From: Actinomycetales bacterium
GTDB lineage: Bacteria; Actinomycetota; Actinomycetes; Actinomycetales; JBBRBF01
NCBI GenBank assembly: GCA_038206105.1
Contig: JBBRBF010000016.1
Coordinates: 655 to 64,654 of the forward strand
Length of the DNA stretch: 64,000 nucleotides
Reading direction: 5' to 3'
The notes beneath the pieces were generated by a model. That model saw only the letters and a list, made by a program, of their open reading frames with translations, had not been told where the DNA came from and made no database searches. Shown in pieces: positions 12,170 to 49,889 of this stretch (positions are counted from its first letter, which is position 1; every line of letters starts with the position of its first letter). Both the position numbers and the translations under genes were made by a program.

Positions 12170-13534
12170 CTAGCCGGCGCCCCCGGCGTCGCAGTCGACG
12201 AGCCCGGCGCGGGCCTTGGCGGTCAGGACGCGGGTGGTCGCCTGCTCGACGCGGGCGGAGAAGTCCGGCTCGCCCGACCGCTCGACCAGCGCGTCGAGCA
12301 TCACCTGCGCGTCCTCGGCGCGGACGGTGAGCACGAGGTCGCCGCCGGCTGCGACGAAGCGGGTGGCGCGCTCGCCCACCGGGACACCGGCGAGCGCCAC
12401 CGCGGCACCGACGTCGTCGGTCATCACGACGCCCTCGAAGTCCAGTGCCGACCGCGCGAGACCCACCACCGTCGGCGAGAACAGGGCGGGGCGGTCGGGG
12501 TCGATCCCGAGGTACGTGGCCGACGACATCATCACGAAGCCGGCGCCCGCACCGACCCCGGCGCGGAACGGTTCGAGGAACGCGTCGTCGGGGACCGTGA
12601 CGTCGTCGACGACGCCGGCGCTGTCGTCGGTGTTGCCGGTGGCGCGCCCCAGCCCGGGGAAGTGCTTCACGCTCGTCGCGACCCCGGCACCGTCCATGCC
12701 CGCGACGAAGGCGGCGACGCCGGGCGCCGCCGTCGCAGGCGTGTCGCCGTAGTGGCGCCCGAAGCGCCCGATCGGGGCGTTGTCGGCACCCGGTGCCACG
12801 ACGCCCGCGACGGGGGCCAGGTCGAGGTCCACACCGGCGGCGGCGAGCTCGGCCCCCCAGCCGGCGGCGCGCTCGCGGAGCGTGGCCGTGTCCCAGGAGC
12901 CCTGCTCGCGAGGGCGGGGGATGTCGCTGAACCCGGGCCCGGAAAGCACCTGCACGGCCCCGCCCTCCTGGTCGACCGCCACGAGCGGCGCGGGTCCGCC
13001 GCCCTCGACCAGCGCCCGGACGGCGCGCACGAGCGCCCTCGTGGCGTCGACGCCGCGCCGGGACCGTCCGGTGAGGATCACGCCACCGACACCGAGGTCG
13101 CCGACGGCGTGGGCCGCCGCGGCGGGGGGCGAGTCCGCGTCGGCCGGGAGCCCGACCACCAGCAGCTGCGCGGCACGGCGGTCGGCGGGCATGGCCGTGA
13201 CCAGGCGGACGGCGCACGCCACCTCCGATGGCACGTCGGCACCGGAGGACGGGGCCCCCGCGGCCGTGGACGCGGAGGCCGGGGGCGAGACGGCCGGGGA
13301 CGAGCTGGCCGGGGACGAGACGGCTGGGGACGAGGCGGCCGGGGACGAGGCGGCTCGTGTCGCCGACGGCGGTCGGGACCCCTGCCCGGCACCGGGGGTG
13401 CCGGAGCACGCGGCGAGCCCGACCGCGACGAGCCCGACCGCGGCCAGCATCGCGGGCGTCGTCCCGGCCACCGGCACCCGCGCGGCACCCTGCCGGCGGC
13501 GGTGCCCATACCGGGGACGAGTGGTCGTGCTCAC
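12170..13534 (-). CDS. GH3 beta-N-acetylhexosaminidase-like lipoprotein
   Basis: Lipobox LAAC, Ser/Pro/Ala linker, VDQEGG, LAPVAG, KHFPGLG, VMTDD; start uncertain. Confidence 0.88.
   Translation of the reverse strand: MSTTTRPRYGHRRRQGAARVPVAGTTPAMLAAVGLVAVGLAACSGTPGAGQGSRPPSATRAASSPAASSPAVSSPASSSPAVSPPASASTAAGAPSSGADVPSEVACAVRLVTAMPADRRAAQLLVVGLPADADSPPAAAAHAVGDLGVGGVILTGRSRRGVDATRALVRAVRALVEGGGPAPLVAVDQEGGAVQVLSGPGFSDIPRPREQGSWDTATLRERAAGWGAELAAAGVDLDLAPVAGVVAPGADNAPIGRFGRHYGDTPATAAPGVAAFVAGMDGAGVATSVKHFPGLGRATGNTDDSAGVVDDVTVPDDAFLEPFRAGVGAGAGFVMMSSATYLGIDPDRPALFSPTVVGLARSALDFEGVVMTDDVGAAVALAGVPVGERATRFVAAGGDLVLTVRAEDAQVMLDALVERSGEPDFSARVEQATTRVLTAKARAGLVDCDAGGAG
13277..13351. repeat. 15-bp x5 coding tandem repeat (SSPAA/SSPAV units)
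   Basis: GG(C/T)CGGGG(A/G)CGAGxx-type units read directly at 15-bp period. Confidence 0.85.
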
Positions 13535-13637
13535 GCCGCCGACGCTAACGGGGAGCTCGTTCGGAGTCGCACGGCACCGACAGGGCGCCGGCGCGGCACC
13601 GACGGGCACCGGCACCGCGGCCGGCACGCGACCGCGC

Positions 13638-13663
13638 TCAAGGCGTGCCCCGCCCAGCCCGAT
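13638..13663 (+). promoter_or_regulatory. sigma28/WhiG(FliA)-like promoter upstream of the GGDEF-EAL gene
   Basis: TCAAG-N15-CCCGAT(GA); family consensus TAAA-N15/16-GCCGAT. Confidence 0.55.
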
Positions 13664-13721
13664 GAGGTGAGCACGAGGCCCGACCGGATGCTCCGGGGGG
13701 CCGTGCGCGGACGGGACGGTC

Positions 13722-15191
13722 GTGGCAGACAGCGAGTGGCTCGTGACGGCGACGATCGTGGCGCCGGTTGCGTGCGCCATGGTGCTGCTCGTCGTCCTGC
13801 TGCGACGCCAGCAGCGCGAGCGGGACCGGATGGCGCACCGCGACCCGCTGACGGGGCTGGGCAACCGGACCGCCCTGATGGCGCGCGCCAAGGAGCTGCT
13901 GCTGCGGATGCCTCCCGACGAGGAGGCCGACGGCGACGGCGACCACGGCCCCGCCCTGCTGCTGATCGACCTCGACGGCTTCAAAAACGTGAACGACACC
14001 CTCGGCCACGCCGCGGGCGACCTCCTGCTCGACCAGGTGGCGCAGCGGCTGGCGACGGGCGCCGGCCCCGGCACCGACGTGATGCGCCTGGGCGGCGACG
14101 AGTTCGCCGTCCTCGTCGAGGGGCCGGTCAGCGCGACCCAGGCGAGCATGGTGGGCAAGAAGCTGCTGGCCGCGCTCGGCGCCGGCGGCTTCACGGCGGC
14201 GGGCGTCGCCCTCGACGTCGGCGCCAGCATCGGGGTGGTCGTGGCGCACAGCCGTCGCGTGACCCTCACCGACCTGCTCAAGCACGCCGACGTGGCGATG
14301 TACGCCGCCAAGCGGACCCGCAGCGGCGTCCTCGTGTACACCCCTGACCTCGACCCCCACAGCAGCGACCGCCTCGGCACCCTCAGCCTGCTGCGCGGCG
14401 CGATGGACGACGGACAGCTCGAGCTGCGCTACCAGCCGGTCGTCGCGGCCGACGACCAGCGGCTGCTCGGCTTCGAGACCCTGCTGCGGTGGCGGCACCC
14501 GACCCGCGGCCTGCTGCTGCCCGCCGAGTTCCTCCCCCTGGCGGAGCGGACCGCGCTGATCCGGCCGCTGACCCGCTGGGTACTGCTGACCGCGCTGCGC
14601 CAGGGCTCCACGTGGCGCAGCGAGGGGCTGCAGGCCACGATCGCCGTCAACGTCAGCGCCGCCGTCCTCGAACCGGGGCTGCTCGGCATGATCGACGAGG
14701 CGCTCGCCCTGACGCGCTGGCCCCCGGATCAGCTCGTGCTGGAGATCACCGAGTCCGCGCTCGCCCAGAACCCCGCCGAGGCCGTCTCGGTGGTGGGGCG
14801 GCTGCGCGAGCGCGGCGTCCACGTGGCCATCGACGACTTCGGCGCGGGCTTCACCGGCCTCGGGCAGCTGCGCGGCCTGCCCGTGCAGGTGCTCAAGATC
14901 GACCGCCAGTTCGTCGCCGGTGTCGGCGTCGACGCGACCGACGAGGCGATCGTCACCACGATCGTGGAGCTGGCGCACCGGCTCGGGATGCGCGTGATCG
15001 CCGAGGGCGTCGAGACCGCGGACGTCGCGCGGCGGCTGCACGCGATGGGCTGCGACGAGCTGCAGGGCTTCGGCCTGGGCCGCCCGATGGACGCCCCCGG
15101 TGTCGAGGCCTGGATGCGGACCCGCCGGTCCCCGGCGACGACGGCGCTCTCGGTGCGCCGACCGGAGCGCACCCACGAGCCCTCGGCCTGA
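13722..15191 (+). CDS. Membrane-anchored GGDEF-EAL c-di-GMP cyclase/phosphodiesterase
   Basis: DPLTGLGNR, DLDGFKNVNDTLGH, RLGGDEF; ETLLRW, LEITE, IDDFG, LKIDRQF, AEGVET, QGF; one N-terminal TM. Confidence 0.95.
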   Translation: MADSEWLVTATIVAPVACAMVLLVVLLRRQQRERDRMAHRDPLTGLGNRTALMARAKELLLRMPPDEEADGDGDHGPALLLIDLDGFKNVNDTLGHAAGDLLLDQVAQRLATGAGPGTDVMRLGGDEFAVLVEGPVSATQASMVGKKLLAALGAGGFTAAGVALDVGASIGVVVAHSRRVTLTDLLKHADVAMYAAKRTRSGVLVYTPDLDPHSSDRLGTLSLLRGAMDDGQLELRYQPVVAADDQRLLGFETLLRWRHPTRGLLLPAEFLPLAERTALIRPLTRWVLLTALRQGSTWRSEGLQATIAVNVSAAVLEPGLLGMIDEALALTRWPPDQLVLEITESALAQNPAEAVSVVGRLRERGVHVAIDDFGAGFTGLGQLRGLPVQVLKIDRQFVAGVGVDATDEAIVTTIVELAHRLGMRVIAEGVETADVARRLHAMGCDELQGFGLGRPMDAPGVEAWMRTRRSPATTALSVRRPERTHEPSA

Positions 15192-40958: not shown

Positions 40959-40964
40959 GGAACC

Positions 40965-41603
40965 TCAGCCGAGCGCAGGCCGCCGGCTCAGCACATGACC
41001 CCGGTCGGTGCTCAGCCGCCGCCAGGGCCCGACCGCGTGCAGACCCACGGGTTCGTCGGTCAGGAACCCCAGGGCGTGCGCGGCGAACCCGGCGCCGGCC
41101 GGGACGTCGTCCGTGCCGTCCAGCGTCCGTCCCCACACGCTCGCCCGCAGCCGCGCGACGGCCGCCGCACCGGCGACGTCCGGGGTGCCGGCCGCGACCT
41201 CGGAGATCCCGGCGACCGCCGCCGCCCGGAGCGTGTCCGCGGGCAGCGGCGGGAGCGGCGCCCAGCCCGACCGGGGCGGGGCCACCCCCGCCCACGGCGC
41301 GGGGTGCGTGACCGGCGGCACCGCGAGCGAGCTGCCCCCCTCGTCGCGCGCGAACCGGTCCGCGAGGGCGGCCAGCGGCACCGTGGCATCGAGGTCCGCG
41401 GGTTCGGCGAGCCCGACCACCCGCAGCCCCAGCACCGTCGGGCCACCTCCCCCGGACAGGGCACCGACGTACACCGCCAACGCGGTCCCGTGACCGACGA
41501 GTCGCGCCCCACCGTCCGGGTCGATCCGGCGCGCACGCGCGACGTACGTGGCGAGATCGCGGCGGGTCGCGACGTCGGCGAGCAGCAGGTCGCCTGCGGT
41601 CAC
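40965..41603 (-). CDS. Conserved actinobacterial hypothetical protein (Rv2474c-like)
   Basis: DLATYVARA.R.DPDG..RL, W.G..PPRSGW, W.RLST.RGHVL; GTGA overlap with the thioesterase. Confidence 0.8.
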   Translation of the reverse strand: MTAGDLLLADVATRRDLATYVARARRIDPDGGARLVGHGTALAVYVGALSGGGGPTVLGLRVVGLAEPADLDATVPLAALADRFARDEGGSSLAVPPVTHPAPWAGVAPPRSGWAPLPPLPADTLRAAAVAGISEVAAGTPDVAGAAAVARLRASVWGRTLDGTDDVPAGAGFAAHALGFLTDEPVGLHAVGPWRRLSTDRGHVLSRRPALG

Positions 41604-42118
41604 CGCCCCGCCCCGGCGCCGGCGTCCCGCCGGTCGCGCTCCCGGCGGCGCAGCCGGACAGGCTCGTCGAGCCAGGCCTCCAGCCGTCCGCGCTCGACGG
41701 CCGTGAGCCGCCGAGGCCGGCCGGCGTCCAGGTCGTAGACGACCATCGTGGACTCGGCCCGGGCGTACACGGTCGTCCTCGCACGGCGGCCGTCGACGCC
41801 ACCGTCCCCGTCGCCATCGGCCCCTGCCACGTCCAGCACCTCGTAGCCCATCTCGAAGCTGGCGGCCCGCAGGTTGCTCACCCACAGGTCGATCGCCACC
41901 GGCTCCGGGCGCCAGTGCAGCGGCTCCAGGTAGTCGATCTCGTGCCGCGCGACGAGCAGCCCGGTGCCCACCATGTCGCCGCCGTCGTCACTGCCCGCGG
42001 CGTGGAACGCCTGCACCCGCGCGTCCTCGAGCAACCGCAGGAAGACGACGTTGTTCACGTGTCCGTACGCGTCCATGTCGGACCAGCGAAGCGGGGTCGG
42101 GAAGCGGAGCCGGCTCAT
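41600..42118 (-). CDS. 4HBT-family acyl-CoA thioesterase (Rv2475c-like)
   Basis: LRWSDMDAYGHVNNVVFLRLLEDAR. Confidence 0.92.
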   Translation of the reverse strand: MSRLRFPTPLRWSDMDAYGHVNNVVFLRLLEDARVQAFHAAGSDDGGDMVGTGLLVARHEIDYLEPLHWRPEPVAIDLWVSNLRAASFEMGYEVLDVAGADGDGDGGVDGRRARTTVYARAESTMVVYDLDAGRPRRLTAVERGRLEAWLDEPVRLRRRERDRRDAGAGAGR

Positions 42119-42207
42119 GGGTCCATCGTGCCGCACCGCCGCGCGGCCGCCGCGGCGCCGCGGGGCCGTCCCCGCACCGACCCGCGTTGTGGGTAGCGTG
42201 CGCAGGT

Positions 42208-43287
42208 GTGAGCGAGAGCACCCCGGGCGAGGCCGGTCCCGACGGCGACCTGCCCGGTCTCGACCTCGCCGCCCTGCGGCGGTGGCTCGCCTCGACCGGC
42301 CTGCACGACGGGCCCGTCGAGGCGGAGCTGGTCGTCGGCGGCCGCTCCAACCTCACCTTCGCCGTGGACGCCGGGGCGCAGCAGTGGGTGCTGCGCCGAC
42401 CCCCGCTCGGGCACGTGCTCGCGACAGCCCACGACATGGCGCGCGAGCACCGCGTCATCAGCGCGCTGACCGGCACGGCCGTGCCGGTGCCGGCCACCGT
42501 GGCGCTGTGCACCGACACGGGCGTCCTCGGTGCGCCCTTCTACCTCATGGAGCGCGTCGAGGGCGTCGTCGCGCGCTCCCGCGCCGACGTGGGCCGGTGG
42601 TCGAAGCCGCAGCGCCATGACCTGGCGATGCGGATGATGGACGTGCTCGCCGACCTGCACGCCGTGGACCCCGAGGCGGTCGGGCTCGGCGACCTCGGCC
42701 GGCCCGACGGCTACGCGCACCGGCAGGTGAAGCGGTGGGGCCAGCAGCTGGACCGCAGCCGCAGCCGGCAGGTCCCCGGGATCGACCGCCTCAAGGTGCG
42801 CCTCGCGGCCTCCGTGCCACGGCTTCCCCGGACCGGGATCGTGCACGGGGACTACCGCCTGGACAACCTCGTGCTCGACGCGGACGACGCGAGCATCCTC
42901 GCCGTCCTGGACTGGGAGATGTCGACGCTCGGCGCCACCCTCACCGATGTCGGCCTGCTGCTCGCCTACGCCACCGCGCTCGGCCCGAAGAACCCGGTCG
43001 CCGACGGCTTCGGGCCCGCGAGCGGCTTCCCCGACGTCGCGGAGCTCGTCGCGCGCTACGCGGAACGGGCGAGCCTCGACGACACCGGCCTCGCGGCGCT
43101 GCCGTGGTGCACCGCGCTGGGATGCTTCAAGGTGGCGGTGATCCTGGAGGGCATCCACTACCGCTGGTCGAAGGGCCAGACCGTCGGGGAGGGCTTCGAG
43201 CGGATCGGCGCATTCGTGCCGGGTGCGGTCGACCGCGGTCTCGCCGTCCTGGACGACCCGGCGTCCGTGCTGCCAGCCGGGGCCTGA
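42208..43287 (+). CDS. APH/choline-kinase-fold phosphotransferase (ACAD10/11-kinase or LvaA-like)
   Basis: GGRSNLT, LRRPP.G....TAHDMAREHRV, FYLME, HGDYRLDN, LDWEMSTLG. Confidence 0.9.
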   Translation: MSESTPGEAGPDGDLPGLDLAALRRWLASTGLHDGPVEAELVVGGRSNLTFAVDAGAQQWVLRRPPLGHVLATAHDMAREHRVISALTGTAVPVPATVALCTDTGVLGAPFYLMERVEGVVARSRADVGRWSKPQRHDLAMRMMDVLADLHAVDPEAVGLGDLGRPDGYAHRQVKRWGQQLDRSRSRQVPGIDRLKVRLAASVPRLPRTGIVHGDYRLDNLVLDADDASILAVLDWEMSTLGATLTDVGLLLAYATALGPKNPVADGFGPASGFPDVAELVARYAERASLDDTGLAALPWCTALGCFKVAVILEGIHYRWSKGQTVGEGFERIGAFVPGAVDRGLAVLDDPASVLPAGA

Positions 43288-43288
43288 C

Positions 43289-44524
43289 GTGGACTTCGCC
43301 CCGGACGCGGTGACCCGCGACCACGCCGCCCGGCTCGAGGCGTTCATGGCGGAGGAGGTGCTGCCCGCCGAACCGGTCCTCTCGGAACAGGTGGCGCGCG
43401 CCAGGGGCGACGGCGACCCGTGGCGCCGGCCGCCGGTGATGGCCGACCTGCAAGCCTCGGCGCGCCGCCGCGGGCTGTGGAACCTGTTCCTGCCCGACCC
43501 GGCGCTCGGCGCCGGACTGTCGGTGCTGCAGTACGCGCCGCTGGCGGAGATCACCGGCCGGTCCCCCCACCTGGCGCCCGAGGCCCTGAACTGCGCGGCG
43601 CCCGACACCGGCAACATGGAGCTGCTCGCCGAGTTCGGCACCGCCGAGCAGCGTGAGACGTGGCTGGAACCGTTGCTGGACGCGCGGATCCGGTCTGCGT
43701 TCTGCATGACGGAGCCGGACGTCGCCTCCTCCGACGCGACGAACATCCGCACCCGCATCCGGCGGGACGGCGACGACTACGTCGTCTCGGGCCGCAAGTG
43801 GTGGTCCACCGGCGCGATGGACCCGCAGGCGGAGGTGCTCGTCGTGATGGGGCAGTCGGCGGACCCCGACGACCCCGACGTGCCCCGCCACCGGCGGCAG
43901 TCGATGGTGCTCGTCCCCCGGAGAGCGCCGGGCGTCCGCGTGGTCCGGGCGCTTCACACGTTCGGCTTCGACGACGCCGCCCACGGTGGGCACGCCGAGG
44001 TGCACTTCGACGACGTCCGGGTTCCCGCGTCAGCGCTGGTCGCAGGCGAGGGCGACGGGTTCGCGATCGCCCAGGCCCGGCTCGGGCCGGGCCGGATCCA
44101 CCACTGCATGCGCCTCATCGGCATGGCGGAGAGGGCGATCGAGGCGATGTGCCGCCGCGCCCTGGACCGCGTGGCGTTCGGCCGCCCACTCGCGGAGCAG
44201 GGGGTCGTCGCCGAGCGCGTCGCCCAGGCCCGGGTGGAGGTCGAGGCGGCCCGGCTGCTCGTGCTGAAGACCGCCTGGCTGATGGACACCGTCGGCAACC
44301 GCGGGGCCCACACCGAGATCCAGGCGATCAAGGTGCTCGTCCCGCCGCTCGTGCAGCGCGTCGTCGACGATGCGATCCAGGTCCACGGCGGGGCAGGCGT
44401 CAGCCAGGACACGCCGCTGGCCGAGCTGTGGGTCGCGGCCCGGACGTTGCGGCTCGCTGACGGGCCCGACGAGGTGCACCGCGCCTCGCTCGCGCGCCGC
44501 GAGATGCGCCGCTACTCCGGCTGA
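43289..44524 (+). CDS. Acyl-CoA dehydrogenase (ACAD10/11, FadE2 or LvaC-like)
   Basis: LWNLFLP, NCAAPDTGNME, MTEPDVASSDATN, AQARLGPGRIHHCMR, DGPDEVH. Confidence 0.93.
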   Translation: MDFAPDAVTRDHAARLEAFMAEEVLPAEPVLSEQVARARGDGDPWRRPPVMADLQASARRRGLWNLFLPDPALGAGLSVLQYAPLAEITGRSPHLAPEALNCAAPDTGNMELLAEFGTAEQRETWLEPLLDARIRSAFCMTEPDVASSDATNIRTRIRRDGDDYVVSGRKWWSTGAMDPQAEVLVVMGQSADPDDPDVPRHRRQSMVLVPRRAPGVRVVRALHTFGFDDAAHGGHAEVHFDDVRVPASALVAGEGDGFAIAQARLGPGRIHHCMRLIGMAERAIEAMCRRALDRVAFGRPLAEQGVVAERVAQARVEVEAARLLVLKTAWLMDTVGNRGAHTEIQAIKVLVPPLVQRVVDDAIQVHGGAGVSQDTPLAELWVAARTLRLADGPDEVHRASLARREMRRYSG

Positions 44525-45294
44525 CGACCGGCCTCCAGGGACTGCTGCAACCGGTTCATCCGCGTCAGCCAGCCGTCGCGGTCGCCGGCCCGGAACTGCT
44601 CGTGCTCGGCGACCCGGGGGTGCGGCAGCACGAGGAACCGACCGTCGCGGAGGGCCTCCAGCACGGCCTCGACCACCACGTCGACGTCCACGGCCTCGGA
44701 CGCCAGCAGCGCCTCGGCGTCCGGGCCGGCGGCGAGCATCATCGGGGTGCGGACCCCCATCGGGCACAGGGCCTGCACCGTGACGCCACGGTGGTCGTAG
44801 GTCGCGCGCAGCCACTCGGCGTGGGCCACGGCGGCGTGCTTGGTCGCGGCGTAGCAGGCGCTGCCGAGCATCGTCAGCAGGCCCGCGGCGGAGGCCGTCA
44901 TGAGCAGGTGTCCGCGACCTCGCTCCAGCCAGTGTGGCAGCAGCGCCCGCGCAGCCCGCACGTGCGCCATCACGTTCACCTGCCACGCCGCCTCCCAGCC
45001 CTGCTCGTCGGGGCTCGGGGCGACGCCTGCGTTGGCGCAGAACAGGTCCACGTCGCCCAGGCGGTCGAGAGCCGCACCCACGAGGCCCTCCGGACGCGCG
45101 GCGTCGGCGACCACCGCCGTGGCGCCGAGGTCCGAGGCGACGCGCTCCAGACCCGAGCTGTCGACGTCCGAGAGCACCGGCCGCGCACCGTCGGCGGCGA
45201 ACCGCGCCGCCAGCGCCGCGCCGATCCCGGACGCCGCGCCGGTGACGACGACCCCGGCGCCGGCCAGGCGTAGCGGGCGTAGCGGCTCAGCCAC
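44512..45294 (-). CDS. SDR-family oxidoreductase
   Basis: TGAASGIG, ANAGV, YAATKHA. Confidence 0.92.
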   Translation of the reverse strand: MAEPLRPLRLAGAGVVVTGAASGIGAALAARFAADGARPVLSDVDSSGLERVASDLGATAVVADAARPEGLVGAALDRLGDVDLFCANAGVAPSPDEQGWEAAWQVNVMAHVRAARALLPHWLERGRGHLLMTASAAGLLTMLGSACYAATKHAAVAHAEWLRATYDHRGVTVQALCPMGVRTPMMLAAGPDAEALLASEAVDVDVVVEAVLEALRDGRFLVLPHPRVAEHEQFRAGDRDGWLTRMNRLQQSLEAGRQPE

Positions 45295-46324
45295 GGTGGG
45301 GTTCGACGGCGTCCGCAGCGATCTCGACCACGAGGCGTCCGGTCGTGCCAGCGGCCGCGAGGCGGGTGAGACCGTCGGTGGCGCGGTCGAGGCCGAGCCG
45401 CTCACCCACGAGCGGGTCCACCACGCCCGCGTCGGCCAGCGCGCAGATCTCGCGGTGCGCCTCGCGCACGAGCTCCGGCGCTCGGTGGGTGTACAGCCCC
45501 CAGTGCAGCCCGAGCACGGAGTAGTTCTTCACGAGGGCGTGGTTCGTCGCCACGGAGGGGATCTCGCCGCTGGCGAAGCCGACCACGACGATGCGGCCCT
45601 CGAAGGCGACGGCACGCGTCGAGGCGGCGAAGGCGTCGCCGCCCACGGGGTCGAAGACGACGTCCGCGCCCCGGCCGCCCGTGGCGTCCTTGATCGCGGC
45701 CACGAGGTCGTCGTTGGTCCGGTCGAGCACGACGTGGGCGCCCAGCCCCCGGGCGACGTCGACCTTGGCGCCTCCCCCGACGACGGCGACCACGCGTGCC
45801 CCTGCTGCGACCCCCAGCTGGACGGCGGCGCTGCCGACGCCGCCGGCGGCGGCGTGCACGAGCAGGGCCTCCCCGCGCTGCAGCCGGGCCCGGCGGTGCA
45901 GGGCGAACCAGCCTGTCTGGTAGGCGATATGAAGTCCCGCCGCCCTGGCGTCGTCCAGGGACTCCGGGGCGAGGTGCACGTCGCCCGCCGGCGCCAGCGC
46001 GTACCCGCCCAGCGACCCGTGCGGCAGGTCCGCCGTCCCGACCACCCGGCTTCCGAGCAGCCCGTCGCCGACGCCGGGACCGAGCGCAACGACGTCACCG
46101 ACGCACTCGACGCCCGGCGTGAACGGCAGCGGCGGGCGGACCTGGTACGCACCTCGCGCCAGCAGCACGTCGGGAAAGCCCAGGGCCATCGCGCGTACGC
46201 GCACCAGCACCTGTCCCGGGCCGGGGGCCGGCACGACGACGTCGCGCAGCGACATCGCTGCTTCCGGCTCGCCGTGGTGGGTGACCTGCCAGGCGCGGGT
46301 GGGCGTGCCGCCTTCCGCGCTCAC
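45287..46324 (-). CDS. NADPH:quinone oxidoreductase-family (zinc-independent MDR) protein
   Basis: PFTPGVE, LVHAAAGGVGSA, VFDPVGG, GFASG, GLHWG. Confidence 0.92.
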   Translation of the reverse strand: MSAEGGTPTRAWQVTHHGEPEAAMSLRDVVVPAPGPGQVLVRVRAMALGFPDVLLARGAYQVRPPLPFTPGVECVGDVVALGPGVGDGLLGSRVVGTADLPHGSLGGYALAPAGDVHLAPESLDDARAAGLHIAYQTGWFALHRRARLQRGEALLVHAAAGGVGSAAVQLGVAAGARVVAVVGGGAKVDVARGLGAHVVLDRTNDDLVAAIKDATGGRGADVVFDPVGGDAFAASTRAVAFEGRIVVVGFASGEIPSVATNHALVKNYSVLGLHWGLYTHRAPELVREAHREICALADAGVVDPLVGERLGLDRATDGLTRLAAAGTTGRLVVEIAADAVEPHRG

Positions 46325-47121
46325 CCCAGCCCCCCGACGCGGGAGACGCCGCCGTCGAGCACGACCGTCTGCCCGGTGAGCCAGGCCGCGTCGTCCGAGA
46401 GCAGGAACGCGACGGCACCCGCGACGTCGTCGGGCACGCCGAGGCGGCCCAGGGGGTAGGCGGCGGCGACCTGCTCCTCGCGGCCGGAGTACAGCGCACT
46501 CGCGAACTGCGTCTTGACGATCGCGGGCGCGACCGCGTTGACGCGCACCGCCGGCGCCAGCTCGACCGCCAGGCAGGCGGTGAGGTGGGCGACGGCGGCC
46601 TTGCTGACCCCGTACATCGCGATGCCGGGGGCGGGCTGGACGCCCGCGATCGACGACAGGGCGACGACGGCTCCGCCACGCTCGCGCAGCGACGCCCGCC
46701 AGGCCTGCTGCACCCAGCCGAGGGTTGCCAGCACGTTCACGTCGAGGATCTTGCGACCGGCAGCGAGGTCGAGGTCGACCAGCGGTCCGTGCACGGGGTT
46801 GATGCCCGCGTTGGCGACGAGCAGGTCCACCGGGCCGAACGCCGCGGCGGTGCGCTCCAGCGTCTCGACCTGGTGGTCCGGGTCGTCCGCGGGGCCGGCG
46901 ACCCCGAGCGCCGACACCTCGCCGCCGAGGTCCGCGACGGCCGTGGCCAGTGCGTCGGCGTGGCGCGCGGTCACGCACACCCGAGCGCCCTCGTCGACCA
47001 GACGCCGCGCCACGGCGAGCCCGATCCCGCGGCTCGCGCCGGTGACGACCGCCACCCGGCCGGTGAACCGGCCGCCGGGCGCCGTGTCGGGGTGCGCCTG
47101 CACTGCCCCGGCGGCGCTCAC
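46321..47121 (-). CDS. SDR-family 3-oxoacyl reductase-like oxidoreductase
   Basis: TGASRGIG, NAGINP, YGVSKAA, RVNAVAP.IVKT.F. Confidence 0.93.
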   Translation of the reverse strand: MSAAGAVQAHPDTAPGGRFTGRVAVVTGASRGIGLAVARRLVDEGARVCVTARHADALATAVADLGGEVSALGVAGPADDPDHQVETLERTAAAFGPVDLLVANAGINPVHGPLVDLDLAAGRKILDVNVLATLGWVQQAWRASLRERGGAVVALSSIAGVQPAPGIAMYGVSKAAVAHLTACLAVELAPAVRVNAVAPAIVKTQFASALYSGREEQVAAAYPLGRLGVPDDVAGAVAFLLSDDAAWLTGQTVVLDGGVSRVGGLG

Positions 47122-48263
47122 AGCCCGAGGTCCCGGCCGACGATCTCCTTCATGATCTCGTTCGAGCCCGCCCAGATCTTCGTGACGCGGGCGTCCCGCC
47201 AGGCTCGCGCGACGCGGTACTCGTTCATGTACCCGTAGCCGCCGTGCAGCTGCACGCAGGCGTCGATCACGTCGTTCTGCACCTCGGCGGACCACCACTT
47301 CGCCTTCGCCGCGTCGGGCGCGGAGAGGTCCCCGTCGCCGTGCAGGGCGACGCACTGGTCGACGAAGGCGCGCGTCACGTCGATCTTGGTGACGAGCTCG
47401 GCGATCGTGAACTTGTTGTGCTGGAACGAGCCGATGCTCTGCCCGAACGCCGTCCGCTCGCGCGTGTACTCGATCGTCTCGGCGAGGATCTGGGCGGCAT
47501 GCGCGGTGTTCGACACCGCAGCACCGATCCGCTCCCCCACCAGGTGCTCCATCATGTGCACGAAGCCGCGGTCGACCTCCCCGATCACGTTGCCCGCAGG
47601 CACCCGGACGCCGTCGAAGAAGAGCTCGGCGGTGTCGGACTCGGTCTGGCCGACCTTGTCGAGCTTGCGCCCGCGGTCGAAGCCCGCCATACCCGTCTCG
47701 ACGGCGAACAGCGTGATCCCCCTGGAGCCGCCCTCGGCTGTCGTCCGCGCCGCCACGATCACGAGGTCCGCGGACCAGCCGTTGGTGATGAACGTCTTCG
47801 AGCCGCTCAGCACCCAGTCGCCGCCGTCACGGCGGGCCGACGTCCGCAGTGCCGCCAGGTCGGACCCGCCCCCGGGCTCGGTCATGGCGATCGCGGTGAG
47901 CAGCTCACCCGTGCAGAAACGGGGAAGCCACCGCTGCCGCTGCTCCTCGGTGGTCAGCTCGACGAGGTACGGCGCGACGACGGAGGAGTGGATCCCGAAG
48001 CACGAGGAGATCGAGGCTGACAGCGCCGAGAGCTCCTCGGCGACCACCACGCCGAAGCGGGGGTCCTCGGACCCCTGGCCGCCGTAGGCGTCCGGTACGC
48101 GCATCCCGAGGAAGCCCTGCTTGCCCGCCTCGATCCACACGTCGCGCGGCAGGCCGCGCGCCTCGACGAACTCGTCCATCCGCGGTCGCAGGGACCGGTC
48201 GCAGAACTCGCGGACGGACGCGCGCAGCGCCTCGTGCTCGGCGGTGAACAGCGTACGACGCAC
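47118..48263 (-). CDS. Long-chain acyl-CoA dehydrogenase
   Basis: IAMTEPGGGSDL, SKTFITNG, ER, QLHGGYGYMNEY, IWAGSNEIMK. Confidence 0.95.
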   Translation of the reverse strand: MRRTLFTAEHEALRASVREFCDRSLRPRMDEFVEARGLPRDVWIEAGKQGFLGMRVPDAYGGQGSEDPRFGVVVAEELSALSASISSCFGIHSSVVAPYLVELTTEEQRQRWLPRFCTGELLTAIAMTEPGGGSDLAALRTSARRDGGDWVLSGSKTFITNGWSADLVIVAARTTAEGGSRGITLFAVETGMAGFDRGRKLDKVGQTESDTAELFFDGVRVPAGNVIGEVDRGFVHMMEHLVGERIGAAVSNTAHAAQILAETIEYTRERTAFGQSIGSFQHNKFTIAELVTKIDVTRAFVDQCVALHGDGDLSAPDAAKAKWWSAEVQNDVIDACVQLHGGYGYMNEYRVARAWRDARVTKIWAGSNEIMKEIVGRDLGL

Positions 48264-48295
48264 GGTGCCTCCGGGGTGTTACGGTCGCGGCATGA

Positions 48296-48311
48296 GTGAG
48301 CGCTTGCTCAC
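48296..48311. promoter_or_regulatory. Candidate TetR operator
   Basis: GTGAGC-GCTT-GCTCAC palindrome between the divergent ACAD and TetR genes. Confidence 0.65.
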
Positions 48312-48360
48312 CGCTCAGCGTCGGTCCCCCCGGGCCCGGGTGTCAAGGCGGTCCGACGCG

Positions 48361-49005
48361 GTGACCGCGGGCAATGTCGGTGGGCGGCCCGCTGTCGCCC
48401 AGGTGTGGCCGGACGACGTCCCTCCGGCCGCGCGACGACTGCTCGACGCTGCCGTCGCCGCCTTCGCCGAGCGCGGCTACCACGGCACGACGACCCGCGA
48501 CATCACGGGCCGCGCGGGGCTGAGCCCCGCCGGGCTGTACGTGCACTACCCCTCCAAGGCAGCGGTGCTCGGGCACGTCAGCCGGATCGGCCACGAACGG
48601 GCGCTCGACCTTGTGCGGGAGTGCCTCGCCGGTGGCGGCCGGCCCCGGGACCGGCTGCACGACCTCGTCGCCACGTTCGTCGCCTGGCACGCCGAGCACC
48701 ACACGATGGCCCGGGTGGTGCAGCACGAGCTCGCGGCGCTGACGCCGGAGGACCGGGCCGAGGTGACACGGCTGCGCCGGGCCCTGGAGCGCGCGGTGGC
48801 CGCGGAGGTCCGCCGCGGCGCGGCCGTCGGTGACCTGGTCGTGCCCGCTCCGCGCCAGGCGACGCGTGCCATGCTCTCCCTCGCCGTGGACGTGGCCCGC
48901 TGGTACGACCCTGGAGGTCGGGAGTCGCCCCAGCGTCTCGGCCGCGTGTACGCCGACCTCGCCCTGCGGATGCTGGGCGCCGCCGAGACGAAGGACGCTC
49001 CGTGA
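48361..49005 (+). CDS. TetR/AcrR-family transcriptional regulator
   Basis: LLDAAVAAFAERGYHGTTTRDI..RAGLSPAGLYVHYPSK; start uncertain (48292, 48361 or 48403). Confidence 0.92.
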   Translation: MTAGNVGGRPAVAQVWPDDVPPAARRLLDAAVAAFAERGYHGTTTRDITGRAGLSPAGLYVHYPSKAAVLGHVSRIGHERALDLVRECLAGGGRPRDRLHDLVATFVAWHAEHHTMARVVQHELAALTPEDRAEVTRLRRALERAVAAEVRRGAAVGDLVVPAPRQATRAMLSLAVDVARWYDPGGRESPQRLGRVYADLALRMLGAAETKDAP

Positions 49006-49889
49006 GCCAGGCCGCGACGACCCCCCTCGCCGAGCTGTGCGCCGTCCTCGACCTGGAGGAGCACGGCAGCGACGACCGAGGTCAGGACCGATTCCTCGGG
49101 CAGAGCCAGCGCCAGCCGCACGGCAGGGTGTTCGGCGGGCAGGTGCTCGGGCAGGCCCTCGTCGCCGCGGGGCGGACTGTGGCGGCGGACCGCCCGGTGC
49201 ACTCGATGCACGGGTACTTCCTGCGCGCCGGCGACTCCACGGAGCCGATCGAGTTCGCCGTCGAGCGGCTGCGCGACGGCCGGTCGTTCAGCGCCCGGCG
49301 GGTGCACGCGCTGCAGCAGGACCGGCCGATCCTGTCGATGATCGCGTCGTTCCAGCACGACGACCCCGGCCTGGACCACGCCGACCCGATGCCGGACGTC
49401 CCCGCGCCGGAGGACCTGCCCACCACCGCGGACCTGATCGGCCACATCGACCACCCGGCCGCCCGGTACTGGAGTCGCGAGCGGCCGATCGACGTGCGCC
49501 ACGTGCAGGACCCGGTGTACCTCGTCGCGGCCGACGAGCGCACCGCGCGGCAGGCGGTGTGGCTGCGTGCGGACGGCACGCTGCCCGACGCCCCGCTGCT
49601 GCACCGGGCCGTGCTGGGCTACGCGAGCGACTACACGCTGCTCGAGGCGGTGCTGCGCCGCCACGGCGTCGCATGGGCGACGCCGGGGCTGAAGGCGGCG
49701 AGCCTCGACCACGCGATGTGGTGGCACCGCCCGGGTCGCGCCGACGACTGGCTCCTGTACGTGCAGGGCAGCCCGTCGGCATCGGGGTCGCGCGGCCTGG
49801 GCATCGGCCGGCTCTTCGCGCGCGACGGCACCCTCGTGGCCTCCGTGGCGCAGGAGGGGATGGTCCGCGTCCCGCCCCCGCAGGGCTGA
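49002..49889 (+). CDS. tesB: Acyl-CoA thioesterase II
   Basis: RVFGGQVLGQAL, HSMHGYFLRAGD, RDGRSF, YASD, SLDHAMW, SVAQEG. Confidence 0.95.
   Translation: MSQAATTPLAELCAVLDLEEHGSDDRGQDRFLGQSQRQPHGRVFGGQVLGQALVAAGRTVAADRPVHSMHGYFLRAGDSTEPIEFAVERLRDGRSFSARRVHALQQDRPILSMIASFQHDDPGLDHADPMPDVPAPEDLPTTADLIGHIDHPAARYWSRERPIDVRHVQDPVYLVAADERTARQAVWLRADGTLPDAPLLHRAVLGYASDYTLLEAVLRRHGVAWATPGLKAASLDHAMWWHRPGRADDWLLYVQGSPSASGSRGLGIGRLFARDGTLVASVAQEGMVRVPPPQG

Follow-up and report, generated by a model that had tools for sequence, protein, structure and literature searches.

A cluster of nine genes at positions 41600-49889 was analyzed in a 64,000-nucleotide stretch of the genome of an Actinomycetales bacterium (assembly GCA_038206105.1, contig JBBRBF010000016.1). 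The whole stretch is called the window here, and positions are counted from its first letter. The cluster encodes a kinase and a flavoenzyme of the ACAD10/11 type together with reductases, an acyl-CoA dehydrogenase (ACAD), thioesterases and a TetR-family regulator. It is probable that these proteins remove the blocking C4 oxygen of 4-oxo and 4-hydroxy fatty acyl-CoAs so that beta-oxidation can continue, with the regulation and substrate supply proposed below. To our knowledge, the chemistry by which a kinase and an eliminase process 4-hydroxy acids has become known only recently, and bacterial studies of it are limited to Proteobacteria. This chemistry is already known; the conserved actinobacterial helper set and its repressor site were not found described in the literature searched.

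The kinase and flavoenzyme pair

Two adjacent genes constitute the core of the cluster:
42208-43287, plus strand: APH-fold kinase of the ACAD10/11 type, 359 amino acids (PF01636, 1e-44), predicted 4-hydroxyacyl-CoA 4-kinase
43289-44524, plus strand: ACAD10/11-type flavoenzyme, 411 amino acids (three ACAD domains), predicted 4-phosphoacyl-CoA phosphate eliminase yielding 2-enoyl-CoA

The stop codon of the kinase gene is separated by 1 nt from the GTG start codon of the flavoenzyme gene. Each gene is present as one copy in the genome, which is 3.1 Mb in size and 92.7% complete.

The flavoenzyme has a full ACAD fold, and PF02771, PF02770 and PF00441 each scored over the cut-off. Its matches in PDB were 4hr3 from Mycobacterium abscessus (2e-138), human ACAD11 (2e-132) and mouse ACAD11 (7.5e-131). 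The best ordinary ACAD was MCAD with the e-value 5e-39, which leaves ACAD11 ahead by about 90 orders of magnitude. In mouse ACAD11, the marks of the family are the catalytic Asp D753, the HCMR motif at H634-R637, and the upstream R626 (PMC12440821). The flavoenzyme keeps the equivalent of R626 and HCMR (RLGPGRIHHCMR), and the segment aqaRLGPGRIHHCMRlig is the same as the mouse motif. The usual catalytic Glu is replaced by Asp, as lrlaDGPDEVH is aligned to LRLADGPDEVH of the mouse protein, and the D753N mutant chain 8v3v shows N in this column of the alignment. The Arg, HCMR and Asp residues are invariant across twelve homologues from the same order (R264 and H272-R275 in A1).

For the kinase, the best match in PDB was 9o56 (1e-65), followed by 3dxp (7e-53) and the kinase domain of mouse ACAD11 (5e-43). 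The catalytic loop ivHGDyrlDN (D220 and N225 in mouse) and the metal-binding DWE in vlDWEmstlg are aligned with both ACAD11 and 9o56. Two arginines for CoA contact are also kept. The first is in maREhrv, corresponding to dREfki of mouse (R86, in the RE of alphaC), and the second is in ahRQVkrW, corresponding to ckRQVstW (R176). The CoA contacts of R86 and R176 in mouse ACAD11 come from modelling alone (PMC12440821).

Judged from the sequences, the pair belongs to the ACAD10/11-LvaC/kinase system, and all features that define the system at this level were found. The initial annotation had recognized an ACAD10/11-type pair, and both the residues and the strength of the ACAD11 match bear this out; the eliminase-type active site on which that proposal depended is present as the R626 equivalent, HCMR and Asp. 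The kinase had been likened to LvaA as well as to ACAD10/11. The latter part stands, as the protein is of the ACAD10/11-Burkholderia type with the catalytic and CoA-contact residues, while an LvaA type was not shown.

Both halves of the pair are homologous over the full length to mammalian ACAD10/ACAD11 (PDB 8v3u/8v3v; PMC12440821, PMC11342911), with the e-values 5e-43 for the kinase and 7.5e-131 for the ACAD part. The same chemistry is predicted from this homology, i.e., phosphorylation of the 4-OH and subsequent FAD-dependent elimination of phosphate to yield 2-enoyl-CoA. The mammalian proteins are single fusions, whereas the window encodes two separate coupled proteins without a HAD domain. 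Unlike in mammals, the pair is embedded in a bacterial regulon with two short-chain dehydrogenases/reductases (SDRs), a medium-chain dehydrogenase/reductase (MDR), an LCAD-type ACAD, two thioesterases and TetR.

The pair of Burkholderia pseudomallei, from another phylum, likewise consists of separate ACAD10/11-type kinase and ACAD genes, and the likeness is drawn through the published description. The split Burkholderia orthologues substitute for ACAD10 domains in vitro and act on 4-hydroxyhexanoyl-CoA, and kinases of the Burkholderia type are much closer to ACAD10/11 than Pseudomonas putida LvaA (29% identity) (PMC11342911). As far as reported, LvaB was not used in the B. pseudomallei assays (PMC11342911). 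A kinase of the ACAD10/11-Burkholderia type would explain why LvaB is not needed.

Gene content and conserved linkage

The other features of the cluster are as follows:
41600-42136, minus strand: 4HBT/YbgC-FadM-like acyl-CoA thioesterase, 172-178 amino acids (PF13279, 6.5e-20), divergent from the kinase gene
42194-42199, plus strand: putative -10 box TAGCGT, 8 nt ahead of the kinase GTG
44512-45294, minus strand: SDR1, a classical SDR, fourth and last gene of the operon (PF00106, 9e-35)
45287-46324, minus strand: QOR, an MDR-family NADPH quinone-oxidoreductase/zeta-crystallin-like protein, 345 amino acids, third gene of the operon (ADH_N and ADH_zinc_N)
46321-47103, minus strand: SDR2, a FabG/DHRS4-like SDR, second gene of the operon (PF13561, 8e-53)
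47118-48263, minus strand: classical ACAD of the LCAD type, 381 amino acids, first gene of the operon (three ACAD domains in Pfam)
48293-48310, no strand: predicted operator, an 18-bp imperfect palindrome TGAGTGAGCGCTTGCTCA, conserved in relatives
48361-49005, plus strand: TetR-family repressor, start GTG at 48361 or 48403 (TetR_N and TetR_C_24)
49002-49889, plus strand: TesB acyl-CoA thioesterase II, 295 amino acids (PF02551, 4.7e-41)

Spurious long open reading frames (ORFs) are common because the window has a G+C content of about 75%. Genes were called through third-position GC, Pfam and NCBIfam, and nine real genes were recognized between 41600 and 49889. The pair is convergent with the four-gene operon ACAD-SDR2-QOR-SDR1, and their 3' ends share 13 bp (44512-44524). 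The TetR gene is divergent from this operon. GTGA overlaps are observed at SDR2/QOR and at tetR/tesB, the latter coupling tesB translationally to tetR, and the start of SDR1 overlaps the stop of QOR by 8 nt. The LCAD-type ACAD gene starts with GTG at 48263, preceded by a GGAGG ribosome-binding site. The start of TetR was placed by aligning relatives, and TesB scored 263 bits against TIGR00189, under the cut-off of 293. The gene order first described (kinase and ACAD facing an operon of ACAD, SDR, quinone reductase and SDR, with TetR, a palindrome and tesB) proved correct, all the genes being real and in place. The 4HBT thioesterase gene, just outside the start of the region that had been delimited, is conserved and is part of the cluster.

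Unrelated genes flank the cluster on both sides. To its left is a polyol/sugar transport cluster, and to its right are genes for DUF2254, an ABC-F ATPase and SSB. Between a SorC/DeoR-like regulator gene and the 4HBT gene lies a segment of about 640 bp (40960-41600; 78% G+C) with overlapping ORFs of atypical codon-position GC, none of which has a Pfam match. It represents either a low-complexity protein or non-coding DNA.

The linkage of these neighbors to the pair was analyzed with 80 named Actinomycetota loci, mostly from Streptomyces with counts that are not independent, and with 40 genomes from the same order, which as related genomes are not independent samples. In 72 of the 80 loci, the ACAD11-type gene immediately follows the kinase gene, and 54 have an SDR1 orthologue (at least 44% identity) no more than 10 kb from the pair. 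The full layout, from the 4HBT gene through the kinase-ACAD pair and the convergent SDR1-QOR-SDR2-ACAD genes to TetR-TesB, is kept in three genomes of the order (L013-L015), which belong to two other families. In these genomes, orthologues of the LCAD-type ACAD (74-78%) are at the same position, and TesB orthologues (76-77%) are present. The 4HBT orthologue (49-71% identity) adjoins the kinase gene in L014-L016 and is about 2.9 kb off in L013.

Elsewhere, the same genes are rearranged around the pair. A single tight SDR2-SDR1-kinase-ACAD operon was found in Nocardiopsis dassonvillei, Virgisporangium, Krasilnikovia and one metagenome-assembled genome (MAG). The order is SDR2-kinase-ACAD in L017 and QOR-kinase-ACAD in Allorhizocola, and Kitasatospora and a Nocardioidaceae MAG have TetR with SDR2-SDR1-QOR next to the pair. 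SDR2 shares one operon with the pair in six cases (L017, L044, L099, L104, L105 and G021). In five genomes with 66-117 SDR candidates each, the pair-adjacent copies of SDR1 and SDR2, where present, are the best matches genome-wide and mostly the sole strong ones. SDR2 orthologues were found in 15 of the 40 same-order genomes, and the kinase/ACAD pair is present in all 15; the ACAD11-type gene was detected at the e-value 1e-80 or better in 13 of them, and the remaining two (G021 and G022) have a diverged pair. Orthologues of SDR1 and QOR (eight genomes each; 58-66% identity for QOR) are confined to the pair-bearing genomes of the order.

That these genes have stayed linked to the pair although their order changed many times strongly argues for a common pathway. 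That the neighboring operon and TetR are linked to the pair, as originally proposed, is upheld by the rearranged synteny, the uniqueness of orthologues, the co-occurrence and the shared operators described below.

Predicted operator and promoter

The palindrome TGAGTGAGCGCTTGCTCA is located between the operon and tetR, with a chance expectation of 0.14 matches per window. The operator consensus TGAGCAAGCGCTTAGTCA is found at the same place in L013-L015, and more than 20 further loci, mostly from Streptomyces and also from Kitasatospora and others, have the operator adjacent to a TetR orthologue. The Kitasatospora locus L059 has a second operator copy 60 bp ahead of its kinase gene, and in L105 the operator lies between tetR and a fused SDR2-SDR1-MaoC-kinase-ACAD operon. 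With a position weight matrix (PWM) built from 28 sites, 48293-48310 was the sole strong site genome-wide. The operator palindrome of the initial annotation is thus real and conserved in relatives.

The two gene groups are convergent, and therefore no promoter is shared between them in the host genome. A TAGCGT or TACGGT box is kept at the same distance from the kinase start in L013-L016, and the position of this conserved box in the window, TAGCGT 8 nt ahead of GTG, points to a kinase transcript with a short leader or none. The pair probably has its own promoter of this kind.

TetR showed similarity in PDB to 3him (1.5e-30), Mce3R (2e-15), KstR2 (3.5e-13), and regulators of the FadR types. 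By analogy with these proteins, the ligand of TetR is likely an acyl-CoA. KstR2 (Rv3557c) is a TetR repressor of the steroid HIP-CoA regulon with the experimentally defined box AnCAAGnnCTTGnT (PMC3068626). Of the 14 positions of this box, all but one agree with GAGCAAGCGCTTAGTC, the operator consensus of the clade, and KstR2 sites alone turned up as a published match in a literature search for the operator sequence. The identity of TetR with KstR2 was rejected, as 3him, at twice the score, is the far stronger match; the homology is detectable, and TetR of the window is a paralogue, not an orthologue. The regulon also differs, because the window cluster has no steroid genes and the host genome has one site.

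A second conserved element, (G/C)TGTCAAG(G/C), was observed in the tetR leader at 48335-48350, about 35 bp downstream of the operator, and also in L013-L015. It could be a promoter or leader element.

Proposed pathway and rival explanations

SDR2 has an NADPH-type signature (TGASRGIG...VTAR), and its best matches in PDB were DHRS4 carbonyl reductases (5e-49), ahead of FabG (5e-38). It is predicted as the best candidate for an LvaD-like 4-oxoacyl-CoA reductase. By its cofactor motifs and conserved linkage, SDR2 would convert 4-oxoacyl-CoA with NADPH into the 4-hydroxyacyl-CoA that the kinase would phosphorylate at the 4-OH. The flavoenzyme would then form 2-enoyl-CoA by an FAD-dependent elimination of the phosphate that is redox-neutral overall.

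SDR1 has an NAD-type signature with an acidic residue (VLSDVD) and YxxxK. It may oxidize 3-hydroxyacyl-CoA arising downstream, in an MFE-2-like step with MaoC of the relatives, or it may oxidize the 4-OH enantiomer that is not a substrate of the kinase, letting SDR2 reduce the product again and invert it. The latter role fits because the ACAD10 kinase has a strong preference for the R form (PMC11342911). As a test of an MFE-2-type dehydrogenase domain, HSD17B4 was looked for and was absent among the PDB hits of SDR1 at E < 1e-20. QOR scored 194 bits for the PIG3 family, under the cut-off, and matched 4eye (1.5e-53) and zeta-crystallin (8e-36) in PDB, where its relatives are zeta-crystallin, 2-haloacrylate reductase and enoylreductase domains of polyketide synthases. 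It is a predicted C=C (enone/enoyl) reductase, which plausibly saturates a 4-oxo/4-hydroxy-2-enoyl intermediate.

The matches of the operon ACAD in PDB were 2pg0 (1e-101) and mitochondrial LCAD (2.8e-100), and this enzyme would handle the medium or long chain. TesB and the 4HBT thioesterase may release CoA from stalled intermediates. Both TesB and the LCAD type of the operon ACAD indicate chains of medium or long length, not C5. The cluster may serve longer chains or lactones, as was initially suggested; no lactonase was found with Pfam among the nine genes of the cluster.

TetR on the operator 48293-48310 would repress both ACAD-SDR2-QOR-SDR1 and tetR-tesB until it binds an acyl-CoA ligand. 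The substrates probably arrive as CoA esters, through partial beta-oxidation of keto- or hydroxy-fatty acids, or via an unlinked ligase. The genome has capacity for beta-oxidation, with at least five full-length thiolase and at least five crotonase matches and eight ACAD-family genes. Oleate-derived 4-keto acids and lactones are a documented natural source of such intermediates in actinobacteria: Micrococcus luteus converts oleate via 10-ketostearate to 4-ketolauric acid and gamma-dodecalactone, and the 4-keto acid was suggested to block further beta-oxidation (PMC7411827).

The logic is shared with lvaABCDE and LvaR of P. putida, in which an SDR reduces 4-oxoacyl-CoA, a kinase phosphorylates the 4-OH and an ACAD removes the phosphate (PMC6692424, PMC12440821). 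Compared with the operon as these papers describe it, the window cluster encodes a pair of SDRs whose cofactor signatures are opposite, where lva has one SDR, and its regulator is a TetR with a KstR2-like operator in place of LvaR; QOR, the LCAD-type ACAD, TesB and the 4HBT thioesterase are extra. It has no local LvaE-type ligase, no LvaB was seen, and the chains are probably longer than C5. Homologues of lva were reported for Alpha-, Beta- and Gammaproteobacteria, not for Actinomycetota. Strictly speaking, the window cluster does not qualify as an lva operon. It had been proposed as an actinobacterial version of the kinase/eliminase system, and this is supported by the ACAD10/11 residues in both proteins.

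Several observations weigh against the proposed pathway. The pair is convergent with the operon in the host genome and is not co-transcribed with it. No second operator, including ahead of the kinase gene, was found in the window or the genome by a pattern search with 3 mismatches and the PWM from 28 sites. The loci used for synteny are mostly from Streptomyces, and the roles of SDR1, QOR and the LCAD-type ACAD are assigned solely by family membership and context. No AMP-binding CoA ligase gene is present in 41600-49889, as had been noticed initially. Neither a MaoC hydratase (tblastn) nor an oleate hydratase (PF06100) was found in the host genome at its 92.7% completeness. An LvaB-like gene had not been seen locally either, and indeed no unassigned ORF with coding-type third-position GC was left in 41600-49889, no homology search with the LvaB sequence being made.

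The CoA ligase is a frequent but movable part of the module. It adjoins the pair or SDR1 in 41 of 93 related loci. The host genome has at least seven full-length AMP-binding ligase genes on other contigs, and no close orthologue of the ligases linked to the clusters of relatives was found in the genome (best 33-36% identity). In Streptomyces (L033, L034, L043, L047 and many more; at about 12300-14500 of the loci), an AMP-binding CoA ligase gene follows the SDR1 orthologue on the same strand, convergent with the pair, and in Microbacterium and G014 the ligase gene is directly after the ACAD11-type gene. A MaoC-type (R-specific) enoyl-CoA hydratase is encoded in 36 fetched loci (examples are L105:8512-8946, L097:9533-9961, L098:1199-1633, L038:6049-6480 and L020:9048-9473). 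In about 10 loci, its gene immediately precedes either the kinase gene or the ACAD11-type gene. The MaoC gene is immediately behind the TetR operator in L097 and L038.

The main rival explanation is that the kinase acts not on acyl-CoA but as an alkylglycerol or monoacylglycerol kinase in the salvage of ether or ester lipids, with the neighboring ACAD doing a separate job. Phosphorylation of 1-O-alkylglycerol in vitro was reported for ACAD10 kinase domains and several homologues from prokaryotes, some of them stimulated by acetyl-CoA (preprint 10.1101/2025.09.10.675409), and the numbering of 9o56, the best PDB match of the kinase (N219 and D234-W-E236), fits the C. thermarum kinase of this preprint. 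These two points also speak against the proposed bypass of 4-oxygenated acyl-CoAs. However, the kinase is coupled translationally to a flavoenzyme with the phosphate-handling Arg/HCMR/Asp site, its CoA-contact arginines are conserved, and the split Burkholderia orthologues act on 4-hydroxyhexanoyl-CoA (PMC11342911). The genes that accompany the pair encode acyl-CoA enzymes, CoA ligases, MaoC hydratases and a TetR of the acyl-CoA type; they are not glycerolipid genes. This genomic context argues against glycerolipid phosphorylation as the primary role, and we consider it quite improbable. It is unlikely, too, that the ACAD-SDR-QOR-SDR operon, TetR and TesB form an independent unit for fatty acids or the detoxification of xenobiotic carbonyls that merely neighbors the pair. 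Such independence would agree with the host operator controlling only the operon and tetR-tesB while the pair has its own predicted promoter, with the SDR2-QOR-SDR1 operon of G026 being 1.8 Mb from the pair, and with the Streptomyces TetR regulon taking in MaoC and another ACAD 5-10 kb from the pair. It is contradicted by the fused SDR2-SDR1-kinase-ACAD operons of several genera and QOR-kinase-ACAD of another, by the operators directly upstream of the kinase (L059) or of a fused operon (L105), by the pair accompanying SDR2 in 15 of 15 genomes, and by the pair-adjacent SDR copies being the best matches genome-wide.

Turnover of gamma-butyrolactone-type signals or of a secondary-metabolite intermediate, instead of bulk lipid catabolism, is very improbable indeed. 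The similarity of TetR to the ScbR family that would favor it (50 bits) is far under the cut-off of 150, and the nearest characterized TetR proteins are sensors of acyl-CoA or steroid-CoA. An MBL-fold hydrolase, from a fold that includes lactonases, is encoded just upstream of the kinase in Streptomyces, but the cluster in this 3.1-Mb genome includes no lactonase or biosynthetic genes, its flanks are sugar-transport and housekeeping genes, and the cluster is widespread in lineages other than Streptomyces.

The bypass of 4-oxygenated acyl-CoAs is the reading preferred here. The window cluster and its relatives show that the ACAD10/11-type version is carried by Actinomycetota including Streptomyces, Micromonospora, Nocardiopsis and Microbacterium. 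A helper set recurs with it, consisting of two SDRs (one NADPH-type and DHRS4-like, the other NAD-type), an MDR-family C=C reductase and TetR with a well-defined 18-bp operator; a MaoC hydratase and a CoA ligase are often added. This set offers candidates for several steps, namely how 4-oxoacyl-CoA is reduced, how the "wrong" 4-hydroxy enantiomer is dealt with and how the pathway is regulated. The difference between actinobacteria in which 4-ketolauric acid and gamma-dodecalactone build up from oleate and those that could burn these compounds may have its explanation here, a point relevant to the production of lactone flavours. A bolder form, which we hold to be rather unlikely, is that Actinomycetota carry a self-contained bypass regulon for 4-oxygenated acyl-CoA under a KstR2-like TetR, in which SDR2 would be the obligate substrate supplier and SDR1 would deracemize 4-hydroxyacyl-CoA or complete an MFE-2-like step with MaoC. 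ACAD11 is peroxisomal, and so are the DHRS4 enzymes closest to SDR2. These DHRS4 enzymes are the nearest relatives of SDR2 with a solved structure, and the linkage in bacteria would then predict that mammalian DHRS4 is a 4-oxoacyl-CoA reductase upstream of ACAD11. If true, this would be a cross-kingdom lead tying DHRS4 to ACAD11.

Some further gene arrangements were observed in related genomes. In about 20 Streptomyces loci (such as L055:7348-8776 and L077:7534-8862), two co-directional genes are located just upstream of the kinase gene. One encodes a His-rich protein of 98-101 amino acids with repeated HGDHVDY..DGH.H motifs, and the other encodes the MBL-fold (Lactamase_B) hydrolase. No homologue of either was found in the host genome with tblastn. 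Together they could provide a lactonase or thioesterase step; otherwise they could be an unrelated pair concerned with metals.

The diverged pair of G021 (C409:3601-6626) and G022 (C1:1957434-1959709) is reversed, with the ACAD gene (39%) preceding the kinase gene (39-44%), and a close ACAD11-type gene is absent. In G021, it is directly behind the SDR2 orthologue in an SDR2-ACAD-kinase row. The ACAD-then-kinase order is seen in L021 and L022, too. The reversed diverged pair is possibly a second subtype of the module. Two kinase homologues (C1:175183-176142 and 2120439-2121482) and two SDR2 orthologues (C1:203892-204677 and 662338-663087) are found at separate sites in G001, a complete genome of 3.1 Mb from the same order, and this hints at duplicated modules.

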